DNA of 64,000 nt from Chloroflexota bacterium (lineage in GTDB: Bacteria > Chloroflexota > Limnocylindria > QHBO01): NCBI GenBank assembly GCA_038040195.1, contig JBBPIR010000001.1, forward strand, positions 489,141-553,140. Reading direction: 5' to 3'. The translations under genes were made by a program, and so were the position numbers. Within the stretch, counting starts at the first letter, position 1. Each line of letters begins with the position of its first letter. Below the pieces are notes generated by a model. The model saw only the letters and a program-made list of their open reading frames with translations, was not told where the DNA came from and searched no databases. Positions 4,897 to 50,064 of the stretch are shown here, one piece after another.

Positions 4897-5745
4897 ATGA
4901 CCTTCGAGCCAGGCGCGCGCCTCGACCCCGGGCAGGTCCGTGACGTGCGAGGCAAGGGAGGCGTGCTGGCGGTCGGGGGTGGCATCGGCGGCGTGATTCT
5001 GCTGGTTCTCTTTGTCGCGCTGGGCGGCGACCCGTCCCAGCTGCCGCCGGGGCTGCTCGAGGGCCAGACGGTCGGCACCGGCCAAGAGAGTGACCTGACG
5101 GAGGAATGCCAGACGGGGGCGGATGCCAACCTGCGCGACGACTGCCGCATCGTCGGCTACGTGAACAGCGTCCAGGCCTACTGGACTGAGGCCGTGGACG
5201 GCTATACCCCGGCCCTGACCACGTTCTTCACCCAGGCGGTCAACACGGGCTGCGGCACGGCCTCGAGCGCGGTCGGCCCCTTCTACTGCCCGCCTGACGA
5301 GAGCGTCTACATCGACCTCGGCTTCTTCGACCAGCTGGAGACCCGCTTCGGCGCCGAAGGTGGGCCCTTCGCCGAGGCGTACGTCATCGCGCACGAGTAC
5401 GGCCACCATATCCAGAACCTGCTCGGGGACCTCCAGCCTGGCGGAGGAACGGGTGCCGAGAGCCATGCGGTGCGCACCGAGCTCCAGGCCGACTGCTACG
5501 CGGGGGTGTGGGCCAGCAATGCGGTTGAAACGGGCTACCTGGAGCCGATCACGCCTGAGCAGGTCGCCCAGGCGCTCGACGCCGCCTCAGCCATCGGCGA
5601 CGATCGGATCCAGGAGCAGACGCAGGGACAGGTGAACCCCGAGACCTGGACGCACGGCTCGTCCGAGCAGCGTCAGGCGTGGTTCCGCGTCGGGCTCGAC
5701 AGCGGCGACCCGAACGACTGCGACACGTTCAGCGCCGACATCTAA
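4897..5745 (+). CDS. Neutral zinc metallopeptidase (YpfJ-like), membrane anchored
   Basis: HEYGHHIQ zinc motif and an N-terminal TM helix. I chose the ATG at 4897 ([14 protein letters not shown]...) rather than the upstream ORF start at 4807. Confidence 0.8.
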
Positions 5746-5809
5746 CTGAGTAGCCGCCCTCGACCGATGAGCAGAAGGCCCTGCTCGTCGAGCGCTTCCG
5801 GCAGTGGGT

Positions 5810-6805
5810 TCAGCCGCTCGCCGCCGCCGAGGCCGCGGAGGCTCCGAACGTCAACCCGCGCTCCAAGCCGGCCTGCACGACCTGATAGGCGATGAGGAGT
5901 TGCGTGAGCGCCAGCGGGTCGGAGTGCCGCTCCACGCTGCCGTCGAGGTAACTGCCGATCTCCCCGGGACGGAGGTGACGATGCGTCTCCATGTGCGCCC
6001 AGATTCGCTCATCGAGCTCGAGAGAGCGTGAGGGCGAAACCGCTCCGTCGATCTCCAGGATGGAAGCGCCCGTAGCGTCCGCCTCCTGCTCGAGGCGAAT
6101 CGGGGGTGGCTCGTCCGCGGCGGCGCTCGCCAACACGTCGCCGAGGTCGAGCCGAGGAAGCCCAGGGCCGAGCCTGAGACGCACGTTCAGATGGGCGTCG
6201 TGATCGACGGCGGTTCCGGCCCGGAAATAGCCGGCCGGTGGGTAGAACTGGACGAGCATATCGGCGTACGCGCGCTGGGGTGCGAGGTACCGCCGATGGT
6301 CATCGCGCCTGTCGACGATCTGGCGGATGACTTCCGGCACGCTGTATCCGCGCTCCGCGCAGTCCCGCTTAACCTTCCAGGCCCACTTCAGCTCCTCCTG
6401 CGGCTGCAGCCACACGCGAACATCAAACGCGTTTCGCAGGTTCGCGGTCATCAGCGGAAAGAGGCCGCGGATGACGACGATCTCGCGCGGCTCGACATCC
6501 TCGCGCTGGCCGAAGGTCCCCGTCGAGTGGTCATAAGTTGGCTTCGAGATGGTCTCGCCGCGTGCAACAGCGGCGACCTGTCGCGCCATGAGCTCAATGT
6601 CGTTCGCGGCCGGGTTGAGGGCGGTCACGCCGAGCCGCTTGCGCTCTGCTCGGTCCAGCTTGTGGTAATCGTCGAGGCACAGGTTGGTGATCCGCTCCGC
6701 GCCGAAGATCCGATACAGGCCCCTGACCAGCGTCGTCTTGCCGCTGCCGCTGTCGCCTCCCACGGCCACCATGATCGGGCGATGGAAGTTCGTCGCCGCC
6801 ATCAA
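5810..6805 (-). CDS. prk: Phosphoribulokinase (class II / cyanobacterial-archaeal type)
   Basis: 331 aa. P-loop VAVGGDSGSGKTTL, plus DDYHKLDR, KPTYDHSTG and KWAWKVKRDCAERGYS patterns of PRK. The start codon abuts the rbcL stop with no gap. Confidence 0.85.
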   Translation of the reverse strand: MMAATNFHRPIMVAVGGDSGSGKTTLVRGLYRIFGAERITNLCLDDYHKLDRAERKRLGVTALNPAANDIELMARQVAAVARGETISKPTYDHSTGTFGQREDVEPREIVVIRGLFPLMTANLRNAFDVRVWLQPQEELKWAWKVKRDCAERGYSVPEVIRQIVDRRDDHRRYLAPQRAYADMLVQFYPPAGYFRAGTAVDHDAHLNVRLRLGPGLPRLDLGDVLASAAADEPPPIRLEQEADATGASILEIDGAVSPSRSLELDERIWAHMETHRHLRPGEIGSYLDGSVERHSDPLALTQLLIAYQVVQAGLERGLTFGASAASAAASG

Positions 6806-8143
6806 TCAGAACCTCACGCCCGACCACAGGTCGAGCGCCTGGCGCAATTCGGGGCAGGTACGCGCCGCGTGCGCGAGCGTCTGCCCGGCGGCCACCGCCT
6901 CCACCGCAACCCGCGCGGCGGTGGCACCGGCCCGGCTGCCGCCCGGATGGCCGTGCACGCCTCCACCGAACAGGAAGAAGGCGTCCGTCCCGAAGACCTC
7001 GTCGAGCTGGGGAACGTGGCCCGGGTGCAACCCGCCTGAGGCGACGGGAACCAGGGGCTTGAGCTCGCCCCAGGCCTGGTCGAACAGCGTCCCACCCCCG
7101 GCCGGCGCGAACGCGGCGGTCATCATTCGACGCCGCTCGCCCATCTCCTGGATGGTTCCCTCCAGCTTCCCGACCCCGGTGCCGACGTGGACGTGGTCCG
7201 CGCCCATCAGCCGCGCCCACTTGGCGATGACCAAGAAGTCCACGCCGTGGTCGGGGTGGCGATCCATCACCGCATGCATCGCCCGATGCGCGTGCAGCGC
7301 CAGGCCCAGCCGCTCGGTCTCCGCACGCAGCGACGCAGTCGCCGCGAAACCCGCCGTCAGGAAGTCGACCATCACGAACCGGCCGCCCTCGTCGGCCACC
7401 AGGTTGGCGCGGCGAAGCATCTCGCTGGTCTCGGCGGCGGTGACGTTGGCCCAATAGCCCTTGCGCTCCCCGGTCTCGGCCTCCGCGCGTTGCACGAGCT
7501 CCAGTGTCCGCCGGATGCGCTCGTCGAACGGCGACCAAGCCTGACTGTTCAGGTTCTCGTCGTCCTTGACGGTGTCGATCCCGCCCCGCAGCGTCTCGTA
7601 GGCGCGCCGCGCATGCTCGGCGGGCGAGAGCCCCAGTTTGGGTTTGATGGTAGATCCGGTCATCGCCCGGCCATGAACGTTCAGCTTCTCCCGGACGCCG
7701 GAGATGCCGAACGCAGGCCCTGGGAACGATTCGACCAGGGGTAGGGGGATACGCATGTCGAGCAGGCGAAGCGCGCTCACCGCCTTGAACCCAAAAACGT
7801 TGCCCACCACGCTGGACAGGATGTTGGGGATGCTGCCGAACTCGAACAGGTCAATCGGGTACGCGATCAAGGCGACGTCGGCGGCGATCCGGTACACCCG
7901 CGCCCGGAGCTGGTAGGCCAGGCCCTCGTCATCCTCGCTCACCTCGGTCCAGGTCCCCGTCGAGGACTCGGCCGCCACCGCCGCCGCGGCCTCCTCCATC
8001 GAGGTGTCCTCACGCGGGGCGAGCTTGAACGCAACCAGCAAGTCAGTCGCGGCGGGAACGTAGTCGAGGGCCAGATACAGCTCTTGGTACGAATGAACCC
8101 CACTGGTCCGCTCAGGTCCCGTCTGCGTTGAAGGCTGGGTCAT
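6806..8143 (-). CDS. rbcL: Ribulose-1,5-bisphosphate carboxylase/oxygenase large subunit (bona fide, not RLP); form III-like or form I-prime-like
   Basis: 445 aa. All catalytic motifs are present: ESSTGTW, GNVFGFK, IKPKLG, GGIDTVKDDEN (carbamylated Lys), HAHRAMH, HVHVGT, GKLEG, SGGLHPG and FGGGVHGHP. No small-subunit gene is adjacent. Confidence 0.9.
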   Translation of the reverse strand: MTQPSTQTGPERTSGVHSYQELYLALDYVPAATDLLVAFKLAPREDTSMEEAAAAVAAESSTGTWTEVSEDDEGLAYQLRARVYRIAADVALIAYPIDLFEFGSIPNILSSVVGNVFGFKAVSALRLLDMRIPLPLVESFPGPAFGISGVREKLNVHGRAMTGSTIKPKLGLSPAEHARRAYETLRGGIDTVKDDENLNSQAWSPFDERIRRTLELVQRAEAETGERKGYWANVTAAETSEMLRRANLVADEGGRFVMVDFLTAGFAATASLRAETERLGLALHAHRAMHAVMDRHPDHGVDFLVIAKWARLMGADHVHVGTGVGKLEGTIQEMGERRRMMTAAFAPAGGGTLFDQAWGELKPLVPVASGGLHPGHVPQLDEVFGTDAFFLFGGGVHGHPGGSRAGATAARVAVEAVAAGQTLAHAARTCPELRQALDLWSGVRF

Positions 8144-8413
8144 GGCACCGTGGCTCCCTCTTCGCTTCCCATCTCAGGCCTCCCTACACCTCCGCGGCCG
8201 CGTTGAATTATGGTCAGCCTGAGTGCCCTCGGCAGGTTCGAACAGGGCCGTTCGTACCGAAAACGCCCCGGCAACGAACCTTCGCGACACAGGATCAGCC
8301 GCACCGGCAGCCGTTGTCCAACCGCGCCGGCTCCGGTGGTGAGCGTCAACAGGGGCTCTGACCGAACAAACGGTCGAGGTCAAAGCCTTCTGGCCTGGCT
8401 TCGTGCTCGATGT

Positions 8414-8459
8414 TGGAGCCGAAGGTGGGATTCGAACCCACGACCGACGGTTTACGAAA
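8414..8459 (-). repeat. Truncated tRNA-Thr copy (3-prime 46 nt: anticodon loop to CCA), att-like direct repeat
   Basis: 46/46 nt identical to 16385-16430 of the intact tRNA-Thr. Beyond the anticodon loop the sequence (ATGCG...) cannot pair as an anticodon stem, and no D-arm or acceptor 5-prime strand is present. Confidence 0.85.
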
Positions 8460-8724
8460 TGCGGCCAGCTCCGTCCACTGGCGTCGTGTCATGCTCACTG
8501 AGAGTGGACGCCGCAGAATTGCCGTCCGCCGAAATCCGCAGGTAGCGCTCCCGTCCATCCCGTGGGGCGTCAGCAGGGGCGTCACCCGCTAGATGCAGCC
8601 CTGGAAACGTTGTCCAGGGCCTCGGCTGGGGCCGGCGGGACGAGAACTCCAGTCGGGCAACTGCGGGGAGTCTACGGGCGCCTTAAGGCGGGTGCCAGTT
8701 GGTGAGTGGGGTAGTAGACATAGC

Positions 8725-8768
8725 GGTCCGAAGTTGCCGGTAGCGCGGTATTGGTCAGAAGTTGCCGG
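8725..8768 (+). repeat. Two copies of the 16-mer GGTCNGAAGTTGCCGG
   Basis: GGTCCGAAGTTGCCGG at 8725-8740 and GGTCAGAAGTTGCCGG at 8753-8768. A third copy lies at 12679-12694. Confidence 0.6.
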
Positions 8769-8832
8769 CGCAGTCCGAGTCGCGCCACTCTCAGCGAGGA
8801 AGCTGGTACAGGATCCTGCCTCCGGGCAACGG

Positions 8833-10152
8833 TCAGGATGGTGGGTCCGGGGGTGCCGTCCGCACTGAGCCATCCGCCTCGTCGATGATGACCTCGAGCA
8901 TGGACCAGGCAACGCGGAGGGCCATCTCCACCGCAGCTGGACTCGCGGCCCGGGCGAACAGGAAGCCGAGGTACCGGTCACCTTCGGGGAGCGGAACGAG
9001 CGCCTCCCCGCGCGGGATCGTGATCGACAGGCCGTCGATGTTGGGGACGGCCCGGGCGGCCGACTGACCGCGAACCTCGCGAAGCCGCCCGGCGTGCCGG
9101 ATCGGGAGCATGAGGACGCCCGACGCGGACCGCTCGCGGTGGTGGGGCGGCAGGTCGAGGCCGGCGGCGTGGCGGAGGATGAGCTCCTCCAGGCTGACGC
9201 CGGCGCCGAATCGAAGGGTCCGAGCGCACAGCCCGCCGATCGAGCGAGCGGCGACCTCGAGGACCCACGCCCCCTCGTCGTTCAGGCGGACCTCGGCGTG
9301 GATCGGGCCTTCGCGAAGGCCGAGCGCCCGAGTGGCCAAGGCGGCGGTCGCCTCAACCTCGCGTCGTCGCTTCGGGGAGAGGCGCGACGGGGTAACGAAG
9401 AGAGTCTCTTCGAAGAACGGTCCGTCGAGCGGGTCGGGCTTGTCGAAGACCGCGAGGACCTCGAGCTCACCGGCGCGGAGCAGGCCTTCGATCGCCAACT
9501 CGACACCGGGAATGAAGTCCTCGACCAGGATCCCGGGGACGCGCGCAGGTTTGGCGGGCGCCGCGGGCTTGCCGACCGTGGCGGCGGTGGCGGCGGTCTC
9601 ATCGCAACCGAGGATTCGGGCAACCCGCCGGAAGGCGGCAACCAGCTCGGCCGGGTCGTTCGCCCGGATGACGCCCTGGCTCCCCGACCGATCGAGTGGC
9701 TTCACGACGCACGGGTAGCGGGTATCGGCCGCGAGCGCAGCGAGGGCGGCCGGGCCTGACGTGGCCGGATACGTTGCAAATCGTGGGGTCGGCAGACCGG
9801 CGGCCGCGAACGCCGTGCGGGCGTGCGCCTTGTCACGGCTCCGCTCGACCGCGGCCACCGAGTTGTGCGGCAGGCCGAGCCGTTCGGCTGCCGCGGCGGC
9901 CACTAGGGTCGACCCGTCGTCGACGCCGACGACGGCATCGAGCCGACGTTCGCGGGCGTACCGCTCGATCGTCGCGGCGCCCCGCTCGGCATCGTCGAGC
10001 TGGACACGGATCGTCCCAGCCCCGGCCACCGACTCGAGCACGTTCCGTCGCTCCGCCCCGACCACCACGTCCACCCCGAGCCGATCCGCAGCGGCGAGGA
10101 AGTCGGCCGTACGGTAGGTCCGCGTCGGGAGGAGCAGGAGGATCCGGGTCAT
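8833..10152 (-). CDS. ATP-grasp domain protein (carboxylate-amine ligase-like)
   Basis: 439 aa. YPCVVKPLDRSGSQGV, ILVEDFIPGVELAIEG and FEETLFVTPS patterns of the ATP-grasp fold. Confidence 0.75.
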   Translation of the reverse strand: MTRILLLLPTRTYRTADFLAAADRLGVDVVVGAERRNVLESVAGAGTIRVQLDDAERGAATIERYARERRLDAVVGVDDGSTLVAAAAAERLGLPHNSVAAVERSRDKAHARTAFAAAGLPTPRFATYPATSGPAALAALAADTRYPCVVKPLDRSGSQGVIRANDPAELVAAFRRVARILGCDETAATAATVGKPAAPAKPARVPGILVEDFIPGVELAIEGLLRAGELEVLAVFDKPDPLDGPFFEETLFVTPSRLSPKRRREVEATAALATRALGLREGPIHAEVRLNDEGAWVLEVAARSIGGLCARTLRFGAGVSLEELILRHAAGLDLPPHHRERSASGVLMLPIRHAGRLREVRGQSAARAVPNIDGLSITIPRGEALVPLPEGDRYLGFLFARAASPAAVEMALRVAWSMLEVIIDEADGSVRTAPPDPPS

Positions 10153-10187
10153 GGCCGAATTCTGCGCCAGTTGTACGATTCAGCGAA

Positions 10188-10775
10188 ATGGACGCCCCGC
10201 TCCTGCTCATCACACGCGAGGCGCAGGCCAAGGTCGCGGCGGCCGCCAGGAGCGCCGGCTACCCCGACGCCCGGCTTCGCGTGGCGATTGCCGGTCGGCG
10301 CGGAGCGAGCTTCGCATATGACCTCTCTCTGGTTCGGCCGGACCGGGTCGACCCGGCGGACCTCGTCGTCGAGACCCCGCTCGGCGTCGTCTATGTCGCG
10401 GCTGCCGATGCCGAGCGACTGCGCGGCGCCACGATCGGCCTGGACGCCACCGTATCCGGCGGGGCGATCGCGATCGACAACCCGAACGTCGGCTGGACCG
10501 ATCCACTCGCCGTGCGGGTCCAGGAGGTACTCGACACGCAGGTCAATCCCGGCGTTGCCGCCCACGGCGGCTACATCGACCTCCTCGAGGTCCGGGACGG
10601 GACGGCCTACATCTCGATGGGCGGTGGATGCGTCGGCTGTGCCCAGGTGGACGTCACCCTCCGTCAAGGGGTGGAGGTTGCTATCAAGCGGTCCGTTCCC
10701 GAGATCGTCGCTATCGTCGACACCACCGACCACGCGTCGGGCACCAATCCCTACTACCAGTCCGCCAAGAAGTAG
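10188..10775 (+). CDS. Nfu-type Fe-S cluster carrier (IscA/HesB-like N-domain + NifU C-domain)
   Basis: NifU C-domain pattern VNPGVAAHGGYIDLLEV...GGGCVGCAQVDVTL with CxxC. The ATG at 10188 was chosen because the longer ORF from 9696 translates as Arg/Pro-rich junk. Confidence 0.75.
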   Translation: MDAPLLLITREAQAKVAAAARSAGYPDARLRVAIAGRRGASFAYDLSLVRPDRVDPADLVVETPLGVVYVAAADAERLRGATIGLDATVSGGAIAIDNPNVGWTDPLAVRVQEVLDTQVNPGVAAHGGYIDLLEVRDGTAYISMGGGCVGCAQVDVTLRQGVEVAIKRSVPEIVAIVDTTDHASGTNPYYQSAKK

Positions 10776-10899
10776 GGATGAGCATCACGCACTTCCTCGA
10801 TGGCGACTAGCCGATTCGTGCGCGTTGACACTGTCGTGGGATTGACCGTGACGACATGATTGCGCCCGGCACGGCCGGCCTCGGAGAGCTGGCGACCGT

Positions 10900-12654
10900 A
10901 TGAGCCCCAGACCAGAGAGCCGCACGCGCCCGTGCAACGTCCTGGTCATCGGGACCGGCGGGGCCGGCCTCAGAGCTGCGATTGCGGCCCGCCAGGCCGG
11001 TGTCGACGTGGTGGTCATCGGCAAGCGGAGCCGACTGGATGCCCATACCGTGCTCGCCGCCGGCGGTATCAACGCGGCGCTTGGCACCGTCGACCCGGAG
11101 GACTCATGGCAGCAGCATTTCGCCGACACCATGCGAGAGGGCTATTACCTGAGCGACCCGCGCGTCGTCGAGATCATGACCAGCGAGGCACCGCTGGCAA
11201 TCAATGAGCTCGCTGAGTGGGGCTGCCCATTCGCGCGCACCGACGACGGCAAGCTTGACCAACGCTACTTCGGCGCCCACACGTTTCGGCGCACGTGCTA
11301 CGCCGGGGACTACACCGGGCGAGCCGTCCTGTCTACCCTGGCCGAACAGGTGCAGAAGCTCGATATCCCGGTGATCGAAGACCAGTACGTCTCGCGCCTG
11401 CTCACCGCCGACAGCCAGTGCTTTGGTGCGCTTGCCTTCGATCTCCACACCGGGGATCGCACGGTCTTTGAGGCCGACGCAGTCGTCCTGTGCGGCGGCG
11501 GGCATACGCGCATCTGGCGTCGCAGCTCGTCGCGGCGCGACGAGAACTACGGCGAGGGCATGTGGCTGGCCTTCCAGGCCGGGGCGCGCCTGATGGACAT
11601 GGAGCTCGTCCAGTTCCATCCCACCGGGATGCTGCTGCCGGAGGAGGCCGCCGGCACGCTGGTCACCGAGGCCGTGCGCGGCGAAGGCGGGCGACTGTAC
11701 AACGCCGAAGGCGAGCGCTTCATGCAGCGCTACGACCCCCAGCGGATGGAGCTGAGCAGCCGCGACCGCATCGCCCTGGCCAACTACACCGAGATCCAGG
11801 AAGGCCGGGGCGGCCCCAACGGCGGCGTCTTCCTCGACGTGACCCACCTGGGCAAGGACGTGATCCTGGAAAAGCTGCCGCGGATGTACCGCCAGTTCGT
11901 GGAGTATCAGATGCTCGACATTGCCAAAGAGCCCATGGAGGTCGCGCCCACGGCGCACTACTCGATGGGCGGGATCGTGGTCGATCCGCCGACCCACGCC
12001 ACCGACGTTGGCGGACTGTACGCCGCCGGCGAATGCACGGCGGGACTGCACGGTGCCAACCGGCTGGGTGGCAACTCGCTGGTGGAGACTCTGGTGTTCG
12101 GTCGGCGCGCCGGTGAGGCAGCGGCGCGATCTTCGCTGGAGCGCGAATCGCGGCTTCGCTCCAAACAAGTCACCGACGAGGCACACGCCGACCTCGACAG
12201 GCTGATCGACAACGGTACCGAGCTCAGCCGGGCCCTGCAGCGCGCGGTCCGCAACATCATGTGGGAGCACTGCGGCGTGGTGCGCGAAGCCAGCGACATG
12301 GAGCGGGCACTCGGCATGCTGGACGAGGTCCGCTCAGCGCTGCCGAGCGTCGACGTGCGCCCCAGCGAAGAGGGATGGGGCGACCTGGCCCACGTCCTCG
12401 ACGTCCAGGCCATGCTGGGCACCGCCGAAGCCACCCTGCGGGGGGCGATCGCGCGCGAAGAGAGCCGTGGTGCGCACAACCGTTCGGACTTCCCGGAGCT
12501 GGATCCGGCGATGGAGGTCAATTTCATCGTCGGGCGCGGCAGTGACGCCCGGATGGCGCTGGAACCCGCACCCGTTCCGGCGGTCTCCGTGGAGCTCCGA
12601 TCGTGGCTCGCGCGAGCGGGGAATATCGACCCCGCGGGGCGGCTTCTAGAATGA
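10900..12654 (+). CDS. SdhA/FrdA/NadB-family FAD flavoprotein, orphan (no Fe-S or membrane partner genes adjacent)
   Basis: 584 aa. VLVIGTGGAGLRAAI, AHTVLAAGG, VQFHPTG, TEAVRGEGG, AHYSMGG and GANRLGGNSL motifs. Confidence 0.8.
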   Translation: MSPRPESRTRPCNVLVIGTGGAGLRAAIAARQAGVDVVVIGKRSRLDAHTVLAAGGINAALGTVDPEDSWQQHFADTMREGYYLSDPRVVEIMTSEAPLAINELAEWGCPFARTDDGKLDQRYFGAHTFRRTCYAGDYTGRAVLSTLAEQVQKLDIPVIEDQYVSRLLTADSQCFGALAFDLHTGDRTVFEADAVVLCGGGHTRIWRRSSSRRDENYGEGMWLAFQAGARLMDMELVQFHPTGMLLPEEAAGTLVTEAVRGEGGRLYNAEGERFMQRYDPQRMELSSRDRIALANYTEIQEGRGGPNGGVFLDVTHLGKDVILEKLPRMYRQFVEYQMLDIAKEPMEVAPTAHYSMGGIVVDPPTHATDVGGLYAAGECTAGLHGANRLGGNSLVETLVFGRRAGEAAARSSLERESRLRSKQVTDEAHADLDRLIDNGTELSRALQRAVRNIMWEHCGVVREASDMERALGMLDEVRSALPSVDVRPSEEGWGDLAHVLDVQAMLGTAEATLRGAIAREESRGAHNRSDFPELDPAMEVNFIVGRGSDARMALEPAPVPAVSVELRSWLARAGNIDPAGRLLE

Positions 12655-12678
12655 CGCGCTCGCGTAGGTAGATAGAGC

Positions 12679-12694
12679 GGTCCGAAGTTACCGG
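12679..12694 (+). repeat. Third copy of the GGTCNGAAGTTRCCGG motif, upstream of the GH130 gene
   Basis: GGTCCGAAGTTACCGG. With its flank it shares 18/19 nt with 8722-8740. Here CGAAGT/ACTTCG also form a 6-bp hairpin. The motif is followed by TAGACT at 12725-12730 and the ATG at 12739. Confidence 0.6.
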
Positions 12695-12738
12695 ACTTCG
12701 TCGAACCCGCCGACCGAGCCGGTCTAGACTCACTGCCA

Positions 12739-13710
12739 ATGTCCTCCGGCCGCGCCCTTTTCACGCGCTTTCCCGGTAATCCGATCATTCGTGCAGCCGA
12801 CCTTCCCTACGACGCGAACGCGGTCTTCAACCCGGGCGCAGCCGAGGTCAACGGTGAGACCGTCCTTCTCCTTCGCGTGGAGGACCTCCGCGGCATCAGC
12901 CACCTCACCGTTGCCCGCAGCCGGGACGGGGTCAGCGACTGGCGAATCAACAGTGAGCCGAGCTTGCGCTCCGCCCCGGTGCGGTACCCGGAGGAGGTGT
13001 GGGGCATCGAGGATCCGCGGCTGACGTGGCTTGAGGAGATGCAGGCCTGGGTGATCGCCTACACCGCCTACAGCCGGCGCGGCCCGCTCGTCTCCTTTGC
13101 ACGCACGGCCGACTTCCGATCCTTCCGGAGGTTTGGCGCGGCGCTTCTGCCGGAGGACAAGGACGCCGCCCTGTTTCCGCGGCGATTCGGCGGCCGATGG
13201 GCGGTCATCCACCGTCCGACGCCGGTGCACGGGAACGCGAGCATGTGGATCTCCTATTCGCCCGACCTACGCCACTGGGGCGATTTCAGCCTGCTCCTCG
13301 AGCCACGCGAGGGCGCGTGGTGGGACTCGGCCAAGATCGGGCTGGGACCCCCGCCGCTGGAGACCCCCGAGGGCTGGTTGGTCATGTACCACGGTAGTCA
13401 TCTCACGGCCAGCGGCGCCCTGTACCGGACTGGGCTCGCCCTGCTCGATCTCGAGGACCCCAGGACCGTCCTGCGACGCAGCGACGAATGGGTGATCGGG
13501 CCGACTGAGCCCTATGAGCGGGTCGGCGACGTGGGCGGCGTCGTCTTCCCGTGCGGCTGGGTGCTGCATCGGGCGACCAACGAGCTCCGCGTGTACTACG
13601 GCGCAGCCGATACGTCCGTCGCGCTCGCCACCGCGCGCCTGGACGATGTGCTCGAGTACCTGCGCAGCTCCCCCCGGCCGACGCCGCAGAGGCGCCGGGT
13701 GCGCCTCTAG
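12739..13710 (+). CDS. GH130 family glycoside hydrolase/phosphorylase (beta-mannoside-type)
   Basis: 323 aa. NPGAAEVNGETVLLLRVED, GIEDPRLTW, AYTAYS and DKDAALFPRRFGGRW patterns of GH130. Confidence 0.8.
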   Translation: MSSGRALFTRFPGNPIIRAADLPYDANAVFNPGAAEVNGETVLLLRVEDLRGISHLTVARSRDGVSDWRINSEPSLRSAPVRYPEEVWGIEDPRLTWLEEMQAWVIAYTAYSRRGPLVSFARTADFRSFRRFGAALLPEDKDAALFPRRFGGRWAVIHRPTPVHGNASMWISYSPDLRHWGDFSLLLEPREGAWWDSAKIGLGPPPLETPEGWLVMYHGSHLTASGALYRTGLALLDLEDPRTVLRRSDEWVIGPTEPYERVGDVGGVVFPCGWVLHRATNELRVYYGAADTSVALATARLDDVLEYLRSSPRPTPQRRRVRL

Positions 13711-16040
13711 CGGGCGACCTTCACGGCCGCCTGCAGGCCACGCAGGCTAGCGGGTGCCTGCCGAACCTCGCGGATCCGTTCCACGGCCAGCAGCCACGCG
13801 AGCGTCGACTCGGCGCCGCAGTTCGCGTTCACCCCATACGGACCCAGCCCGTCGTGGCAGGCTCCGGCCTGCGGGACGGCCAACGCCAGCCCGAGATGAT
13901 TCTCGCCGAGGAACCACGCGTAGGCGCGCTCCATGTCGTCCAGCCAGCGGGCATCACCGGTCACGATCAGGGCAGCGCGAGCGGCCTCCAGCAGCGACGT
14001 CGCTTCGATCGGCTGCTGGTCGAAGGACGCCGGGCGCCCACCACGGGGCCACCAGCCGCGGTTCCCGATGGGGACCAGGTGTCCGTCGGCGTCCGTCTGC
14101 GCGGCGAGCAGCCAGTCCAGCAGGCGGGCGCCGAGCTCGACCCAGCGGTCCTGGTTCAGCAAGTCGCCGGCGCTGAGGAGCGCCTGCGGCAGGGTCCCGT
14201 TGTCGTAGGTCACCGTCGCCTCTGGCCATGGCCAATCGGCAGTTGCAGGCGGGATGGATGCCGCCAGCGTTGTGGTGAGGCTCGCGAGCGATTGCCGCAG
14301 CGCTGGGCTCCCCGCAGAACGCAGGGCGGCCGCGCAGCCTAGGATCGCGTAGCAGCGTGGCCGGAGGTGAGCGAAGGCCAGCGCAGCCGGCAGGGCGGTG
14401 GTGAAGAGCTTCGACGCCAGGCGACGCGCCACATGGTCGTCGGAGCGGGCCAGGAACTCCCCGAGCGCCTGCAACGCGCGGCCGTGGCAGTCCTCGGAGC
14501 CGATCCGTTCAAGCCACACACCATCGGCACTCCGGAGGTTCCGGAAGCGTCCCGCCGCTGGGTCATAGGCGTCATCCAGAAAGCGCAGCGATCGGTGAAT
14601 CGAGGCCGTCACCGCTGGCCCTGGAGCCTGCTCCGCGTGGAGCAGATCCACCACCAGGGCACGCGCCACGTCATCGGTGCAGGTGCCGTGGCGCGGATCG
14701 GCAGTTTCGCCAATCGCATGCTGCCAGATCCCGCGCCCGGTCCCCAGGCGGGAAAGATGATGCCGTTCGATCCGCGGGAGGACCCGCGCCGGCAGAGTCT
14801 TGGCGGTGACGCGACCGTCAGACCGGGCGGCCTCTGGCCCGATCATCTGGACCGGTCGCAGCGCATGGCGCGCTTCGCCGGCCACCTGGGAGAAGATTGC
14901 CCGGTAGCCGTCGCCGACGGCGTCCCAACTCATGTCGGCGGCCAGCGCGCGTGCGCGGTTCCCGATTTTCTGCCGCTCAACGGGATGGGTGAGGAGCGCG
15001 AACAGCCGGTCGGCGAGCGCCTCGACGTCGTCGAATGGAAACAGGACCCCGCGGCCGTCGGCGAGGAGCTCCCGCGCGTACTCGTAGGGTGTCGAGATGC
15101 ACGCTCGACCGGCGGCCACGGCATATGCCAGCGTCCCCGAGGCAGCCTGCTCGGCGTTCCCGTACGGGGTGACGAAGAGGTCCGCGGCCTGCAGCCAGGC
15201 CACCAGCTCGTTGTCATCGACGTAGCGATCCACGAACAGGAGGTGACGCTCGAGGCCGAGCGCCTGCGCCCGCGCAGCGAGGGCAGCGCGATAGCGTTCC
15301 CCGTTTCGGAGCCGCACCTCTGGGTGCGTGGCACCGACGATCGCGAATCGAGTCTGTGGGACACGATCGCGGATTCTGGCGAGGGCATCGATCACCAATT
15401 CGAGGCGCTTGGCTGGACCAAGCAGGCCGAACGAAAGGATGAGAGGCCCTTCTGGCAAGCCGAGGCGGGCCCGTGCCTCGGCTGGGTCGACTATCTCGAT
15501 CTGCGGTACGCCGTGGGGAATGACCTGCAATGCATCGGACGGGGCCTCGTATTCGGTGCTGAGCAGGTGCCGCGCACGTTCGCTCATTACCACGACACGC
15601 GCCGATCGCCGCACCAGCTCGACGAGGATGGCGCGCTGGAGCGGTGTGGGATGGGGGCGGACCGTGTGCAGGGTGGTGACGAGGGGCACCCGCAACGCCG
15701 CCGCGAGCCCGAGGACGTGACGGCCGGATGGGCCACCGAATATGCCGTACTCGTGCTGGAGCGAGACGACCTCGGTACCAGCGACGGCCAGGTGGGCGGC
15801 GGCGGCGACATACGCCTCGGCGTCGGAGCGCTTCAGGCGGAAGGTGACCTCGGGCGGATACCGGGGCGGGTCCCGGCGGCCGCGGTCTACCGCGACCACC
15901 AGCGGTGTGCGCGCGCCCGGCGGTGTGAGATCTACCAGTGCGTCGCGCAGGTCACGCGTGAAGGTGGCGATCCCGCAACGCCGAGGCGGATAGGTCCCTA
16001 CCAAGGCCAGGGCCGGAAGGTCCTGCCACGTCGCGGTCAT
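13707..16040 (-). CDS. GT4 glycosyltransferase fused to a ~390-aa C-terminal domain of unknown function
   Basis: The N-terminal ~390 aa are GT-B/GT4-like (LALVGTYPPRRCGIATFTRDL, EQAASGTLAYAVAAG). The C-terminal half is helical and Trp-rich. The ATG at 16040 has GGAGGTGAGG upstream. The stop overlaps the GH130 stop as a CTAG palindrome. Confidence 0.8.
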   Translation of the reverse strand: MTATWQDLPALALVGTYPPRRCGIATFTRDLRDALVDLTPPGARTPLVVAVDRGRRDPPRYPPEVTFRLKRSDAEAYVAAAAHLAVAGTEVVSLQHEYGIFGGPSGRHVLGLAAALRVPLVTTLHTVRPHPTPLQRAILVELVRRSARVVVMSERARHLLSTEYEAPSDALQVIPHGVPQIEIVDPAEARARLGLPEGPLILSFGLLGPAKRLELVIDALARIRDRVPQTRFAIVGATHPEVRLRNGERYRAALAARAQALGLERHLLFVDRYVDDNELVAWLQAADLFVTPYGNAEQAASGTLAYAVAAGRACISTPYEYARELLADGRGVLFPFDDVEALADRLFALLTHPVERQKIGNRARALAADMSWDAVGDGYRAIFSQVAGEARHALRPVQMIGPEAARSDGRVTAKTLPARVLPRIERHHLSRLGTGRGIWQHAIGETADPRHGTCTDDVARALVVDLLHAEQAPGPAVTASIHRSLRFLDDAYDPAAGRFRNLRSADGVWLERIGSEDCHGRALQALGEFLARSDDHVARRLASKLFTTALPAALAFAHLRPRCYAILGCAAALRSAGSPALRQSLASLTTTLAASIPPATADWPWPEATVTYDNGTLPQALLSAGDLLNQDRWVELGARLLDWLLAAQTDADGHLVPIGNRGWWPRGGRPASFDQQPIEATSLLEAARAALIVTGDARWLDDMERAYAWFLGENHLGLALAVPQAGACHDGLGPYGVNANCGAESTLAWLLAVERIREVRQAPASLRGLQAAVKVAR

Positions 16041-16384
16041 CCTCACCTCCCGGCGCGGGCACAGCAGGTGTCGCGGATGGAGCGACGCCATGCCCGGCCC
16101 TGATGGCTGCGACGACCACGTGCATCAGCAGAGATCGTGGACCTGAGCAGCGGGGTCCGGATCTGCGAACACGCGTCGCGGCTGCACGTGCTCATGGAGC
16201 TGCGCAACTTGAGCGGGCCCCGTCGCGGGGCCTCGTGGTAGCACCCGATGGTATCGCCGGCGGTGGCCGCGGGTCAAATCGCCGCATTCGCGGCGAGCCG
16301 GCGTTCAGGTCGCAGCCGGGGCGTCAAACCGAACAGACGATCGCGCCTCCGATTCGTGAGCGGGGCAACTTCGTGCTCAGAAGA

Positions 16385-16459
16385 CTGGAGCCGAAGGTGG
16401 GATTCGAACCCACGACCGACGGTTTACGAAACCGTTGCTCTACCCCTGAGCTACTTCGG
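16385..16459 (-). tRNA. tRNA-Thr (anticodon CGU), CCA encoded
   Basis: 75 nt, hand-folded cloverleaf. Acceptor GCCGAAG/CTTCGGC, anticodon stem ACGGT/ACCGT with loop TTCGTAA, T-arm GTGGGTTCGAATCCCAC, 3-prime TCCA. Confidence 0.9.
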
Positions 16460-17339
16460 CCCGATCGCCGGCCGATTTTAGCGCCTCTCCCTTTGCGCTC
16501 CCCAACCTGACCGAGGGCGGCGCCCAGCCGTGGAGCAGCTCGTCGTGGTAGCGCGGCCCGCGCTCCAGCGAACGGGGAATGGGGGCCATCCGCGCCTTTC
16601 CGCGCTGGACCAGGGCGAAGTACGGGCACAGGTCGGTGAGCGGGCACAGGCCGCAGATGGGGCGCGGGGCGCGGCACACCTCCCGCCCGTGGCGTATGAG
16701 CAGCACGTGCCCGGCGTACATGGCCTCGGGCGGCACCACTTCCTCCAGCAGGTCGTGGGCCCGGGTCAGGTCGGTCTTGGGCGGGAGCAGGCCCAGCCGG
16801 GAGGCGACTCGATAGACGTGGGTGTCGACCGGCAGCGCGGGCCGGCCGAACGCGAACAGGAGCACGATCGATGCCGTCTTGCGCCCAATCCCGGGCAGGC
16901 CCACCAGCCACTCGCGGGCCCGCTCGAGCGGCCACTCCCGCAGGTACCCGAGGTCCCAGGTCCCGTTCGTGGCGTCGTGGACCTCGGCCAGAACGAGCTG
17001 GATGCGGCGGGACTTGGTTGGGGCCAGCCCGCCGGGCCGGATGACGTCTGCCAGTTCGTCGGTCGGCGCAGCCAGCACGGCGTCCCACGACGGGTAGGCA
17101 GCCCGCAGGGCCACGAAGGCGCGGTGCGAATTCGTGTCGGCCGTGTTCTGGGCCAGCACGGTCAGGACCAGCTCCGCGACGGGGTCCAGCCGCGGACCGG
17201 ACCAGACCGGCATTCCGTATCGGTCAGCCAGGCGTTCCAGGATGGGACGGATGCGCGCGCGCCGCACGCGGCGCAGCGCGGCCAGCCGGCGGCGGTTGAC
17301 CCGCGATCGCACCCTGCGAGGTCGTGCGGCGTCCGTCAC
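16440..17339 (-). CDS. nth: Endonuclease III family DNA glycosylase (HhH-GPD with 4Fe-4S loop)
   Basis: HhH LPGIGRKTASIVLLFAFG, PVDTHVYRV, and Fe-S loop CRAPRPICGLCPLTDLC. The GTG start at 17339 forms a GTGA overlap with the upstream gene. The 3-prime 20 nt overlap the tRNA-Thr. Confidence 0.75.
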   Translation of the reverse strand: MTDAARPRRVRSRVNRRRLAALRRVRRARIRPILERLADRYGMPVWSGPRLDPVAELVLTVLAQNTADTNSHRAFVALRAAYPSWDAVLAAPTDELADVIRPGGLAPTKSRRIQLVLAEVHDATNGTWDLGYLREWPLERAREWLVGLPGIGRKTASIVLLFAFGRPALPVDTHVYRVASRLGLLPPKTDLTRAHDLLEEVVPPEAMYAGHVLLIRHGREVCRAPRPICGLCPLTDLCPYFALVQRGKARMAPIPRSLERGPRYHDELLHGWAPPSVRLGSAKGEALKSAGDRAEVAQG

Positions 17340-17623
17340 GCGGCTCCCAGCCTCGCGGTCTCGCGGGCATACCCGGCCCAGGCCCCGGCTCCGAGTCGCG
17401 AGGCCTGGCCCAGGTCGACGATCCGACCCCGACCATCCTGCCGCGTGGCCCACGCGTCCGCGTGGTCGGGTGAGCAGAGCAGCACGGTTGGGGTGCAGAA
17501 CTCGGCCCTCAAGTCCGTTCCGCCGGCGGCCAACCACAGGCGCTGGGGTGGCTCGGCCTCGGCCCCGATCGGTACCCGGAGCGTGAATGCGGTGCGCCGC
17601 ACGATCTCGTCGACGTCTCGCAC
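17336..17623 (-). CDS. Small hypothetical protein; C-terminal pattern loosely reminiscent of the MerB C-terminus
   Basis: 95 aa with GC3-rich codons. The GTG start lies 1 nt after the glxK stop and a GTGA overlap links it to nth. FCTPTVLLCSPDHADAWA...LGAG resembles the MerB C-terminal region from memory only. Confidence 0.35.
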   Translation of the reverse strand: MRDVDEIVRRTAFTLRVPIGAEAEPPQRLWLAAGGTDLRAEFCTPTVLLCSPDHADAWATRQDGRGRIVDLGQASRLGAGAWAGYARETARLGAA

Positions 17624-17624: not shown

Positions 17625-18800
17625 TTAGCCTCGGCTCCCCAATCCCTGACCGATGTCGATGCTGCGCGCCAACCGGGCAGCCGCATTGGCCAGCAGGCGT
17701 TCGGTGTCGGCCATGGCGATTTCCAGGCCGAGTGGTCGATCGATGATGGGCTGCACCACGGCGAACGCCCCCGACTCCTCGACGATCTCGGCGCCTGGGC
17801 CCAGGCCGCCGCACAGCAGGACGACCGGGGCATTGCCGGCATGATGGGCCACCCCCAGCGCCGCCTTGCCGGCCAGGGTCTGCTCGTCGGCCCGCCCCTC
17901 CCCGGTGATGACCAGGTCCGCCCCCTCGCAGGCCGCCGCCAGGCCCACCAGGTCGGCCACGACCTCCACGCCGGAGCGCAGCTCGGCGGAGGTGAAGCCC
18001 AGCAGCCCGGCCGTTGTCCCGCCGGCCGCGCCGGCGCCTCGGACCTCCGCCACGTCGCGACCCGTCGCTCGTCGGATCTCGGCTCCCCAGCGCACCAGGG
18101 CCTCGTCCAGCTCGGCGACGGCGTCGGGGTCCGCGCCCTTCTGCGGCCCGTAGCTCGCGGCTGCGCCGTTCGGCCCGGTCAGGGGGTTGGTGACGTCGGA
18201 AGCGATCAGGATCTCGACCTCGGCCAGCCGCGGATCGAGCCCGTCGGCGTCGACGTGGTCCAACGTCGCCAGGGCCGCGCCGCCGTCCGGCACCTGGCCC
18301 CCGCGGGCGTCGAGCAGCCGGAGCCCCATCTCGACCAGCAGCCCCGCCCCGCCATCGGTGGTGGCCGATCCGCCAAGGCCAACCACGATCCGTCCCGTGC
18401 CGGCATCCAGCGCCGCCGCGATGAGCCGTCCCGACCCCCGGGTCGTGGCCAACCGAGCACTGGTCGACGTCCGCTCCGCCAAGGCCAGCCGCGCCAGCCC
18501 GCTGGCCGCCGCCATCTCCACGAACCCCGTTGCACCGCCGTCGAGCGCCAGCCAGTCCGCGCTGATCGGCCGGCCCAGGGGATCGGTCGTCATCACCGTG
18601 TTCCGGGTGGCCGCGCTTCCCCGAGCTGCGGCGATCGCGGCCAGGGTCCCCTCGCCCCCGTCCGCCATCGGGATCTTCACCACCACATCGTCGGGCCGCG
18701 CCGAGGCCCAGCCGCGGGCCATGGCCTCGGCGACCGCCACCGAGTCCAGCGCACCCCCGAACGAGTCGGGAGCCACGACCACGCGCAGCGGCGGGCTCAT
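17625..18800 (-). CDS. glxK: Glycerate kinase (GlxK/GarK family)
   Basis: 391 aa. VVVAPDSFGG, MADGGEGT, ITGEGRADEQTLAGKA patterns. Confidence 0.85.
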   Translation of the reverse strand: MSPPLRVVVAPDSFGGALDSVAVAEAMARGWASARPDDVVVKIPMADGGEGTLAAIAAARGSAATRNTVMTTDPLGRPISADWLALDGGATGFVEMAAASGLARLALAERTSTSARLATTRGSGRLIAAALDAGTGRIVVGLGGSATTDGGAGLLVEMGLRLLDARGGQVPDGGAALATLDHVDADGLDPRLAEVEILIASDVTNPLTGPNGAAASYGPQKGADPDAVAELDEALVRWGAEIRRATGRDVAEVRGAGAAGGTTAGLLGFTSAELRSGVEVVADLVGLAAACEGADLVITGEGRADEQTLAGKAALGVAHHAGNAPVVLLCGGLGPGAEIVEESGAFAVVQPIIDRPLGLEIAMADTERLLANAAARLARSIDIGQGLGSRG

Positions 18801-20707
18801 CGGGAAAGCTCCTTGCGCCTCGCGAGGTAGGCGGGGATCGTGTTCATCGGCGGTCGAATCTCGTCCCCCACCTCGCGGACCTCCAGGCTGAATTTGTCAC
18901 CTTCCTGGCGGATCTGCTTCATCCGCTCGCCCATGTCGGTCAGCAGCTCAATCCGCTGACGCTCCTCCAGCTTGGTGATCCCGGCCTTGAGGATGACAAA
19001 GGCCATCCGCGACAGGTCCAGCAGCGACTGGTTGCGATGGATGCGGCGCTCGAGGTCGACCTGCCCGATGCCGGACAGGCCGACGCGGTCCAGGATGTCG
19101 ATGAGCAGCCCGATCTCGACCGCGTAGCCGGTGAAGAACGGCACCGACTCGAGGAGCGCGCGACGCCCCGCGTACTCCCCGGCCAGGGGTTGGATGATGC
19201 CGGACAGCTCGGGGAAGAACAGGTTGATGAGCGGGCGAGCGGTCAGCTCTGTCACCCGTCCGCCCTCGTCGGGCTGGCGCCGCCCGCCAGCCGTCAGGGG
19301 CCGTTGGTAGAAGGCCTTCACGTAGTGGATCCGCGACTCGCGCAGGAGCGGGCCCAGCAGGCCGTACACGAAGCGAGGCTGGATGTTGCGGATGTCGGTG
19401 TCGACCCAGACCACGATGTCCCCGCGCAGCTCGTACAGGCTCTTCCACAGCGCTTCGCCCTTGCCGACGTGGCTCCCCAGCTCCGGGAGGATGGTGTCGT
19501 GCTGGCGGACGGGTGCCCCCAGCTCGCGGGCGATCTCCACCGTTCGGTCGGTGGAGGCCGAGTCGATGACGAGCAGCTCGTCCACCAACGGCACGCGGTC
19601 CATGAGCGCATCGCGAATGCGACGGATGACCAGCCCGATGGTCTTCTCTTCGTTCAGGGTCGGTAGTCCCACGCTGATGGTCAGGCCCTGGCGCTCCTTG
19701 AGGTCCACCAGGCGCTTGAGGTCGCGAAATTCGCTGGTGTCGAACGTGTTCTCGGCAAACCAGCGGTCGACCACGCTCGGCAGGCTGCGGGTCTGCTCGA
19801 TGGCGGCGTCCGCGGCGGGCAGGCTTCCGGTCTCGGCCCGGAGATGTTCGAAGGTGACTGCGGTGAACGGTTGTCGGGTCTTGACCACCATCACGGTTGG
19901 CTTGGCGCGGCTGGCGACTGTCTCCGCCAGCCGCCCGAACAGGCGCCGGCCCGATCCGGCTCCGGTCGGCTGGGCAGAGGCCCCGACCACAACCAGGTCG
20001 TGGTTCGCGGCCTCTTGCAGGATGGCGCCCCGAACGGTCGGCGCCTCCACCAGCAGCTGGCGGACCTTGACCCCTCGGGTATTACGCCTGACCAGGCGGC
20101 CAAGCGCCGCCCGCTCGTCCTCGAGCGCGGCCGAGCCACCCTCGGGCGGGACCACGTGCAGAACGACCAGCTCAGCGCCGAAGCCGCGCGCCAGGTCGGT
20201 GGCCAGCGAGAGCGCCAGCTCGGCATTCGGACCTCCCCGAACCGGGACCAGGATGGAGCGGACGGTTCCCAGTGCGCGCTGCTTGACCACGGCGATATCG
20301 CATGGGGCCTCACGGACGACCTGGTCAATGGTGGTCGAGAAGACCGCGTGCCGCAGGCCGGTCGGTTGGGGGCCGCCCCAGCCGAAGACCACCAGGTCGG
20401 CCCCGATCTCGGCCACCGCCTCCACGATCCCCTCCGACGCCTGGCGGCCGATGCGGACCGCGGTATGGACCTCGACCGACGCGTCGTCCCGGAAGTCAGG
20501 CACCCGCTGGAGCAGGCGGCGGGCCTGGCGCGCGCGGCTGGCGCCCTCCGCCAGCGACACGCCCTCGGGGACCTCGACGATGCCCAGCGCGGTGATCTCG
20601 GTGGGCCGCCGGTGGGCGAGGTGGGAACCGATGCGGATCAGGTCGCGCGCGGTGCGCGGGTTGGCCAGCGGCATGAGGACCCGATACGGACCACGCCGGC
20701 GGGCCAT
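18797..20707 (-). CDS. gpgS: Tandem universal-stress-protein domains fused to glucosyl-3-phosphoglycerate synthase (GT81)
   Basis: 636 aa. The N-terminal ~300 aa have two Usp-like repeats (DLVVFGWGG, DLVVVGAS). The C-terminal ~320 aa align motif by motif with mycobacterial GpgS as I recall it (PTLNEE, GKGEALW, DTD, GGRVTEL, QPLAGEY, GYAVEIGLLID). Confidence 0.8.
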   Translation of the reverse strand: MARRRGPYRVLMPLANPRTARDLIRIGSHLAHRRPTEITALGIVEVPEGVSLAEGASRARQARRLLQRVPDFRDDASVEVHTAVRIGRQASEGIVEAVAEIGADLVVFGWGGPQPTGLRHAVFSTTIDQVVREAPCDIAVVKQRALGTVRSILVPVRGGPNAELALSLATDLARGFGAELVVLHVVPPEGGSAALEDERAALGRLVRRNTRGVKVRQLLVEAPTVRGAILQEAANHDLVVVGASAQPTGAGSGRRLFGRLAETVASRAKPTVMVVKTRQPFTAVTFEHLRAETGSLPAADAAIEQTRSLPSVVDRWFAENTFDTSEFRDLKRLVDLKERQGLTISVGLPTLNEEKTIGLVIRRIRDALMDRVPLVDELLVIDSASTDRTVEIARELGAPVRQHDTILPELGSHVGKGEALWKSLYELRGDIVVWVDTDIRNIQPRFVYGLLGPLLRESRIHYVKAFYQRPLTAGGRRQPDEGGRVTELTARPLINLFFPELSGIIQPLAGEYAGRRALLESVPFFTGYAVEIGLLIDILDRVGLSGIGQVDLERRIHRNQSLLDLSRMAFVILKAGITKLEERQRIELLTDMGERMKQIRQEGDKFSLEVREVGDEIRPPMNTIPAYLARRKELSR

Positions 20708-35649: not shown

Positions 35650-36009
35650 ATGGACCAGACCGGGCTGCTCTACGTCCTGGGATTCGGCTTCGCCGCCACG
35701 ACGTTCGTGTTCGGCACGATTCTGTTCTCGTGGCTGATCACGCATCGGCGCAAAGAGGCCCAGAAGGGGCTGCCCTACGAGTGCGGGATCGACACCATCG
35801 GTGACACCTGGTCCCGCTTCGGGCTGGCGTTCTACCTGTACGCCCTGCTGTTCGTGGCCTTCGACGTGGAGATCATCTTCATCTACCTCTGGGCGATCGT
35901 GATTCGCGACCTCACGCTCACCGGCATGATCCTGATGGGGATCTTCCTGGTGGTCCTGATGTACGGCGAGTTCTACGCCTGGAAGAAGGGTGACCTGAAA
36001 TGGCGATAA
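35650..36009 (+). CDS. nuoA: NADH-quinone oxidoreductase subunit A
   Basis: 119 aa, 3 TM helices, PYECG motif. Confidence 0.9.
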
Positions 36010-38484: not shown

Positions 38485-38493
38485 GGGGCCGAA

Positions 38494-39513: not shown

Positions 39514-39524
39514 TGGCCTGACAC

Positions 39525-41719: not shown

Positions 41720-41729
41720 GATTGGACCG

Positions 41730-44114: not shown

Positions 44115-44155
44115 ATCCGAGCCCGGGCCGGCGCTGGGCGGTATCCTCGGGCGGA

Positions 44156-45402: not shown

Positions 45403-45432
45403 AATCGGTCACGGCCTCTCGAGCGAGGCCGT

Positions 45433-45975: not shown

Positions 45976-45978
45976 CCG

Positions 45979-46287: not shown

Positions 46288-46291
46288 CGCG

Positions 46292-48529: not shown

Positions 48530-48530
48530 C

Positions 48531-50057: not shown

Positions 50058-50064
50058 GACCGGT

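Follow-up and report, generated by a model that had tools for sequence, protein, structure and literature searches.

A repeated tRNA-Thr fragment and the segment between its copies

We analysed a 64-kb stretch of Chloroflexota contig JBBPIR010000001.1 (positions 489,141–553,140; assembly GCA_038040195.1), hereafter the window, in which a segment of sugar- and redox-metabolism genes, hereafter the islet (8460–16385), lies 3′ of an intact tRNA-Thr gene and is bounded by two copies of the 3′ part of that gene. The only tRNA found in the window by ARAGORN and Rfam is this tRNA-Thr(CGU) (16386–16460, minus strand; Rfam tRNA model, 73.5 bits). A repeat search revealed that its 3′ part at 16386–16431 matches 8414–8459 (also minus strand) over all 46 nt, in the same orientation and at a spacing of 7,972 nt, and that these two copies form a single two-copy repeat family. 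The repeat covers tRNA positions 30–75: it begins with the last base of the 5′ anticodon-stem strand and takes in the loop and 3′ strand of that stem, the variable loop, the T arm and the 3′ acceptor strand, ending with the encoded CCA. Simple arithmetic excludes chance as the source of an exact repeat of this length within 64 kb. At the displaced copy (8414–8459), the D arm, the 5′ acceptor strand and the 5′ anticodon-stem strand are all missing; ARAGORN calls no tRNA there and the Rfam tRNA model has no match. An earlier sequence-only reading of this DNA had described the repeat and the loss of these 5′ parts correctly, but had placed the tRNA-borne copy one base too low, at 16385–16430. Beyond the two copies, no tRNA fragment was found in the window, the only candidate being a chance-level 12-nt match at 5353–5364. 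The neighbouring nth open reading frame (ORF; 16440–17600) ends with its stop codon inside the 5′ end of the tRNA gene, an overlap of 21 nt.

Starting from the intact tRNA, the islet opens with a non-coding arm of 345 nt (P′ arm, 16041–16385), in the place usually occupied by an integrase gene. This is followed by a gene for a 777-aa glycosyltransferase fusion (13707–16040, minus strand), the GT4 domain of which is PimA-like and resembles GDP-mannose-dependent mannosyltransferases, whereas its C-terminal part of around 390 aa has no match in Pfam, NCBIfam or PDB searches. Convergent with it, and overlapping it by 4 nt, is a GH130 mannoside-phosphorylase-family gene (12739–13710, plus strand; Pfam GH130 at 6e-51), the product of which resembles mannoside phosphorylases yet falls under the equivalog cut-offs. 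Domain searches identified the next gene as an SdhA/TfrA-like flavoprotein (10900–12654, plus strand) that has no partner subunits. It is followed by a 195-aa Nfu/NifU-domain protein (10188–10775, plus strand, start ATG at 10188; NifU domain at 1.2e-18 in the plus frame) and a 439-aa ATP-grasp/L-amino-acid-ligase-like protein (8833–10152, minus strand; Pfam ATP-grasp_4, ATPgrasp_N and LAL_C2). This gene list agrees with the sequence-only reading, except that Nfu is now placed on the plus strand: a 195-aa NifU gene is called at the equivalent position in two other contigs described below (L127 and L128), and the 194-aa minus-strand ORF at 10149–10733 was rejected as a spurious antisense artefact. 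A second non-coding arm (P arm, 8460–8832) lies beside the displaced fragment. Searches for proteins identical to the GT4-fusion and ATP-grasp products, using longest-ORF starts, returned no match.

The islet was rejected as a known plasmid or phage, because blastn with the whole islet against plasmids and phages gave only generic similarity to the flavoprotein gene. A scan of viral contigs for the 46-nt core gave 0 matches. No replication genes are present in the islet.

Empty and occupied sites beside the same tRNA in related genomes

The product of the rbcL gene on the far side of the displaced fragment has its closest relatives in uncultured Chloroflexota metagenome-assembled genomes (MAGs), some of them labelled Chloroflexia and others Candidatus Limnocylindria. 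The best of these relatives (L005, CAWFKB010000007.1; RbcL 90% identical, around 80% nucleotide identity) shares synteny with the window to either side of the islet, with L005 2049–9256 corresponding to window 23981–16511 and L005 9996–12326 to window 8148–5814. It has an identical tRNA-Thr(CGU), the 3′ end of which lies around 100 nt from rbcL–prk, and no second copy of the repeat. The site in L005 is empty, and the 8 kb in the window is an insertion with its left edge at the 3′ end of the tRNA. An empty site of exactly this form, with the tRNA leading directly into the rbcL–prk flank, is what the sequence-only reading had proposed to look for.

Four further contigs (L123–L126) were chosen from those encoding homologues of the nth-type glycosylase next to the tRNA. 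All four keep a mannosylglycerate-synthase (MGS)-like glycosyltransferase, a Usp–GT2 fusion, glycerate kinase, nth and tRNA-Thr on one side, and a Peptidase_C26 gene and an FAD/GCV_T gene on the other. The tRNA-Thr is identical at 75 of 75 positions in these contigs and in L005, and none of these five syntenic relatives (79–85% nucleotide identity) has the islet. The segment is thus polymorphic for presence and absence: L005 has an empty site within conserved synteny, and L124 and L125 likewise lack the islet. Between the kept flanks, L125 has a 341-aa ORF only, and L124 has a 345-aa ORF in addition to a 157-aa ORF like that of L126.

Two of the four contigs carry other inserts with the same kind of ends. 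In L126, a 0.58-kb integrase-less insert (5345–5925), containing a single 157-aa hydrophobic or membrane ORF, extends from the tRNA to a perfect 45-nt fragment of it. The sequence after this fragment is the trailer that follows the tRNA in L005 (z = 42.9), which is a clean, textbook attB/attR relation. The homologous 157-aa ORF of L124 (82% amino acid identity) also follows the tRNA (11483–12000), and there the distal fragment is gone. In L123, the closest relative in backbone sequence (85% nucleotide identity), a 7.7-kb insert is bounded by the tRNA and a 46-nt fragment. It encodes a tyrosine integrase (Phage_int_SAM_3 and Phage_integrase domains), the gene for which stops 328 nt from the tRNA end, followed by around 10 small unannotated ORFs. 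In the window, the position of this integrase gene corresponds to the 345 non-coding nt of the P′ arm, after which the GT4-fusion gene starts.

The repeats in the window, L123 and L126 all start at U30/U31 of the anticodon stem–loop, and an anticodon-centred crossover subsite has been described for islands of tyrosine integrases (PMC4383910), the other canonical subsites being the T loop and the T/acceptor junction. Because L123 and L126 carry other inserts with repeats that start at the same place, tRNA-Thr is an integration hot spot. Given that the repeat starts there in L123 as well, the window shows the same geometry as an integrase-bearing element has left at this nucleotide in a relative, with the crossover point inferred from the repeat start. 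These findings bear out the earlier proposal that the segment was inserted at the tRNA with attL/attR geometry.

The three fragments also address the idea that the short copy belongs to a functional, differently folded RNA and is not a scar, which the sequence-only reading had raised as a possible refutation. An Rfam tmRNA-type match spans the fragment and 13 nt upstream (8411–8472, minus strand; 17.7 bits, E = 6e-4), and from the sequence a GGAGCUG just upstream could base-pair with the CGGCUCC of the 3′ end, giving a shifted acceptor-like stem of 7 bp. That match, however, is far under the gathering score of 47, the predicted fold of the region is unremarkable (z = −1.34; 19 of 200 shuffles fold at least as well) and the sequences upstream of the fragments in the window, L123 and L126 are unrelated; the acceptor-like stem is not conserved at the latter two. 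We regard a functional RNA at this position as having a negligible chance of being correct.

The rbcL–prk genes (5810–8143) occupy the same variable region downstream of tRNA-Thr, with no small-subunit gene. The best NCBIfam match of RbcL is the generic large-subunit model PRK04208 (560 bits), and its score against the type III RuBisCO model (486 bits) is just below the cut-off of 497; its nearest relatives outside Chloroflexota are from Bathyarchaeia (64–66%). Among the sequences with the shared backbone, the window, L005 and L126 have rbcL–prk and L123, L124 and L125 lack it, and in another relative (L004; 86% RbcL identity) the pair lies in a different context. We found no distal tRNA fragment or att mark for rbcL–prk in the window. 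The location of these genes in a variable region is relevant to the gain and loss of carbon-fixation-type genes in this group.

Exchange between strains and mosaic cargo

We then compared the window with an independent NCBI MAG assembly of a strain that is 94–96% identical (L127; GCA_046717345.1, contig JBKJVN010000166.1). This contig reads through the nth backbone, tRNA, P′ arm, GT4 fusion and GH130 gene unbroken and colinear with the window, and has a tRNA-Thr(CGU) at the equivalent position that is 100% identical across the aligned 75 nt. The islet and its junction with the intact tRNA are seen in two independent assemblies, L127 and the Logan contig L119, and the P′ arm is 98.55% and 99.4% identical in these, respectively. 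Overall identity to L127 is 98.6% for the islet and 94.3% for the backbone, or 95.8% if nth is left out. By region, identity is 95.2–96.2% for the MGS-like glycosyltransferase, Usp–GT2 and glycerate kinase genes, 88.7% for the nth region, 100% for the tRNA, 98.5% for the GT4 fusion and 99.5% for GH130. In 300-nt bins, the step in identity is located at the tRNA, with 45 mismatches in 3,647 nt on the islet side and 186 in 4,405 nt on the backbone side (Fisher p = 1e-16). Purifying selection was ruled out as the cause of the high islet identity, because the non-coding arm is equally conserved. Within the backbone, the nth region stands apart (L127 4407–5587; 83–93% per 300-nt bin, compared with 94–98% elsewhere), and a short MerB-like ORF lies upstream of nth in both L123 and L127.

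Because the islet is less diverged than the backbone and the step falls at the tRNA, the islet has been shared horizontally more recently than the chromosomes diverged. This pattern fits a unit that was moved or exchanged with one boundary at attL. Together with the absence of the islet from all five syntenic relatives, these sequence comparisons argue against the description of the islet as old in the sequence-only reading; it has been exchanged recently and is not demonstrably ancient.

The same step in identity would also be expected if the islet spread between strains by homologous recombination only, anchored in the tRNA and in the fragment or rbcL flank, with the repeats being relics of one ancient integration. 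The invariant tRNA would be an ideal crossover anchor, the islet contains no integrase and the presence or absence of the flavoprotein gene in near-identical strains (see below) indicates that ordinary recombination occurs within the islet. This account, however, leaves the origin of the repeats unexplained, and the integrase-bearing island of L123 uses the same position in the tRNA. Moreover, a recombination tract running into the rbcL flank was never observed, the right-hand boundary lying outside the data for L127. We therefore consider spread by homologous recombination alone to be unlikely.

L127 also bears on whether the arrangement could be an assembly artefact, in which the assembler, misled by the 46-nt repeat, placed an unrelated segment or an excised circle at a site between tRNA-Thr and rbcL that is in truth empty. 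Logan contigs end 29–30 nt inside the repeat on both sides (L001–L003 at 8443 and L119 at 16414), so short-read graphs branch there, and an integrated state gives k-mers below 46 identical to those of an excised circle plus an empty site. By contrast, the independent MAG contig crosses the tRNA end of the islet without a break, the lack of replication genes disfavours an excised circle and the flank beyond the fragment is only around 60% like the P′ arm, so that one sequence has not been read twice. An artefact of this kind is very improbable.

We next considered where the cargo came from. The closest homologue of the GT4 fusion is 97% identical and belongs to the same islet (L119), and no other homologue exceeds 62%. 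By contrast, nth homologues form an unbroken range from 97% to 81% identity, indicating that the lineage is well sampled. The gap for the GT4 fusion alongside this continuum therefore shows that the GT4-fusion/GH130 pair is not core to the lineage. The convergent pair is conserved at 52–62% amino acid identity in other Chloroflexota contigs, in ordinary chromosomal contexts, and is a functional module foreign to this sublineage. Homologues of the ATP-grasp protein, by contrast, form a continuum from 98% to 79%, and in one contig (L128; 91% ATP-grasp identity) the flavoprotein, Nfu and ATP-grasp genes lie together at an unrelated chromosomal locus, with Nfu and the flavoprotein translationally coupled. 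The cargo is thus a mosaic of a foreign GT4-fusion/GH130 pair and a lineage-typical ATP-grasp/Nfu/flavoprotein module. The flavoprotein gene is missing from the islet of L127, in which window position 12683 is joined to 10778, and is present in L119; because it differs between near-identical strains, the structure of the islet still varies.

Native genes next to a local partial duplication of the tRNA, with relatives having deleted the 8 kb between the repeats, would offer another route to the same arrangement. Deletion between direct repeats is easy, the composition of the islet is native-like and homologues of its ATP-grasp and flavoprotein genes at 85–93% are common in related metagenome contigs. 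Set against this are the consistent absence of the islet from syntenic relatives, the separate location of the three-gene module in L128, the lack of GT4-fusion homologues between 62% and 97%, and the lower divergence of the islet relative to the backbone, which is the opposite of what is expected of ancient native DNA. This explanation is already largely refuted and retains very little credibility.

Several further observations concern the cargo. The flavoprotein gene is 85–94% identical at the amino acid level in around 20 metagenome contigs, with homology ending at the gene ends, and in cross-comparisons the flavoprotein-bearing contigs mostly share no flanks with one another. A metagenome scan with this gene found 80 loci (L039–L118), 0 of which share the flanks of the window, and no parent element was found. 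In two of these loci (L039 and L060), an Nfu remnant downstream of the flavoprotein gene consists of the first and last parts of the gene, with 495 nt missing in frame. In L127, a 97% identical islet copy of the ATP-grasp gene is followed by an inverted 5′ part of this gene and Nfu (L127 10803–12307 versus window 9304–10825; 88% identity), which reflects either chimerism of the assembly or a junction with a second, native module copy in that genome. Finally, the backbone beside the tRNA (17625–22185) encodes glycerate kinase, the Usp–GT2 fusion and the mannosylglycerate-synthase-like glycosyltransferase, and the islet (12739–16040) adds the mannosyltransferase-like GT4 protein and GH130. These genes may have a mannoside or compatible-solute theme in common.

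A 27-nt motif, GTAGAyAkAGCGGTCCGAAGTTrCCGG, occurs three times in the islet and nowhere else in the window, on one strand: twice in the P arm (8714–8740 and 8751–8768) and once between the flavoprotein and GH130 genes (12668–12694, plus strand). Three matches compare with 0.27 expected, and 0 of 100 shuffles reach three. At up to 1 mismatch, its 18-nt core is confined to the islet and L119, with other matches having 3–4 mismatches. Two of the copies bracket the ATP-grasp/Nfu/flavoprotein module, and L127 has a diverged version directly after Nfu. The motif could be an operator or the scar of a nested insertion.

Mode of entry and relation to known integrative islands

Taken together, these data lead us to propose, with a probability of roughly 75%, that the islet is a genomic island and that site-specific recombination brought it into the chromosome at the tRNA-Thr(CGU) anticodon loop. 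What we observe directly is the repeat, the empty site, an integrase-bearing island at the same position, the lack of an integrase in the islet and the lower divergence of the islet relative to the backbone. Under the standard tyrosine-integrase model, the incoming DNA would have carried a copy of the tRNA 3′ part, from the anticodon loop to CCA; this copy would now complete the functional tRNA gene (attL core, 16386–16431), and the original 3′ part would have been displaced to the far end (attR core, 8414–8459). The catalyst was presumably a tyrosine integrase. In its present state, the islet has neither a recombinase nor transfer genes yet retains both att-type repeats, a condition that corresponds to a cis-mobilizable element (CIME). 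We see about an even chance that the integrase was lost, either in an internal deletion or when a tandem array was resolved, and a distinctly smaller one that it was supplied in trans by another element; the remaining probability falls to strain-to-strain spread by homologous recombination through the conserved tRNA and flank. The donors were likely to have been related high-GC Chloroflexota.

A number of results weigh against this proposal. The islet contains no integrase, excisionase or remnant of either: Pfam detected no recombinase among its genes, six-frame Pfam searches of 8144–8850 and 16020–16400, which include both arms, gave nothing at E ≤ 1 and the L123 integrase, used as a tblastn query against the whole window, had its best match (E = 0.62) outside the islet. 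The sequence-only reading, which had likewise seen no integrase remnant, was right on this point. Nor was a recombinase domain found among the Pfam-scanned genes of the window, a scan that covered all but the nuo block (35650–51516) and a few gaps. The arms of the islet have no homologue among the fetched loci other than near-identical L119 and L127, and show no convincing similarity to those of L123: nine tests yielded one borderline pair (window P arm versus L123 P′ arm; 1 of 200 shuffles, with multiple tests), so nothing ties the islet to the L123 integrase. Its composition is native-like, with a GC content of 0.694 compared with 0.696 for the window and a tetranucleotide distance of 0.160 compared with 0.129 ± 0.025, a value reached by 11.5% of equal-sized windows; the compositional comparison suggested earlier thus decides nothing about origin. 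A perfect repeat might be taken as a sign of youth, and we rejected this argument because in L126 a perfect 45-nt repeat encloses an ORF with only 82% identity to its counterpart in L124; a perfect repeat is therefore no reliable clock. The attR junction, moreover, was found only in the window, as other contigs end inside the repeat.

A last difficulty lies in the roughly 120 nt that follow the displaced fragment (8291–8413). The ancestral trailer common to L005, L126 and L125 begins TCGTGCCGGTCAGC, and the first 110 nt or so below 8413 differ from it; homology to the trailer restarts around 123–146 nt past the fragment (around 8243–8267), at the motif GGCGTTTTCGGTAC. The flank is not the ancestral trailer, and a simple one-step insertion into an L005-like site would not yield exactly this sequence. 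The flank instead weakly resembles the P′ arm: similarity 3′ of the two repeat copies continues for around 110 nt (z = 5.4 against shuffles, compared with −1.1 to 2.0 for unrelated flank pairs), and both sequences contain GAGCACGAAG and CGAyCGTyTGTTCGG. The flank is possibly the remnant of an earlier related element, left by tandem accretion and a subsequent deletion that included around 20 nt of the old trailer. Alternatively, it is possibly the native trailer of this sublineage, with a homologous trailer captured in the attP of the element. The P′-like sequence is compatible with past tandem elements, without being proof of them.

The site-specific entry that we favour makes the islet a CIME-like, integrase-less tRNA island, a well-documented and ordinary kind of genomic island. 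It leaves current concepts of such islands unchanged and is of modest interest as a well-resolved example of a known phenomenon. Its value lies in documenting that tRNA-Thr is an active hot spot of integration, with precisely defined ends, in an abundant and uncultured soil lineage of Chloroflexota, and in providing a case for how decayed or satellite islands keep moving, given a recombinase-less islet that was shared after the chromosomes diverged. More speculatively, and in our view doubtfully, the integrase-less att-bounded segments at tRNA-Thr (the 7.9-kb islet and the 0.58-kb insert of L126) could represent a class of trans-mobilised cassettes. If so, they would depend for their movement on integrases of other elements, for example that of the L123 island, and would carry native-type metabolic modules among related Chloroflexota strains, in a tRNA-targeted analogue of integron cassettes.

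Three known systems provide points of comparison. As in islands of the type catalogued by Islander (PMC4383910), an intact tRNA gene and its displaced, directly oriented 3′ fragment mark the two ends of a segment on one replicon, and the block of identity, which in the window, L123 and L126 begins at position 30 or 31 of the tRNA, runs from the anticodon loop to the 3′ end. Synteny is broken at the segment, one relative has an empty site and another has an integrase-bearing island at the same site. The islet differs in being small (7.9 kb), with purely metabolic cargo, and in having no tyrosine integrase inside it by any of the searches above, so the Islander filter would reject it.

The second comparison is with CIMEs, which were defined for the streptococcal systems of integrative conjugative elements (ICEs) and integrative mobilizable elements (IMEs; PMC5704250). 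Like these, the islet is bounded by attL/attR-type repeats, the 46-nt cores of which are intact and identical, and lacks integration and transfer genes; no remnant of either was found in it, and conjugation genes were found neither in the islet nor in the L123 island. Related and unrelated elements accumulate at the site, and the P′-like sequence beyond the fragment may point to earlier accretion in tandem followed by decay. In contrast to the streptococcal cases, the phylum and the target gene differ and no parental ICE or IME was found for the islet. Its excision or transfer alongside a cognate element would be hypothetical, an indirect hint being that it is less diverged between strains than the backbone.

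A parallel within the phylum Chloroflexota is provided by Dehalococcoides, in which 15 ssrA islands without an integration module have been proposed as CIMEs (PMC3146451). There, too, a hot spot lies downstream of a small RNA gene, direct repeats of the 3′ end of that gene mark the islands, and some islands at the site have an integration module while others lack one. In Dehalococcoides, the target is tmRNA, the repeat is 20 bp long and crossover takes place in the T loop, whereas the target of the islet is tRNA-Thr, with repeats of 45–46 nt that start from the anticodon loop. Likewise, the Dehalococcoides recombinase is the serine recombinase DsiB, whereas the sole integrase seen at the tRNA-Thr site, that of L123, is a tyrosine recombinase.

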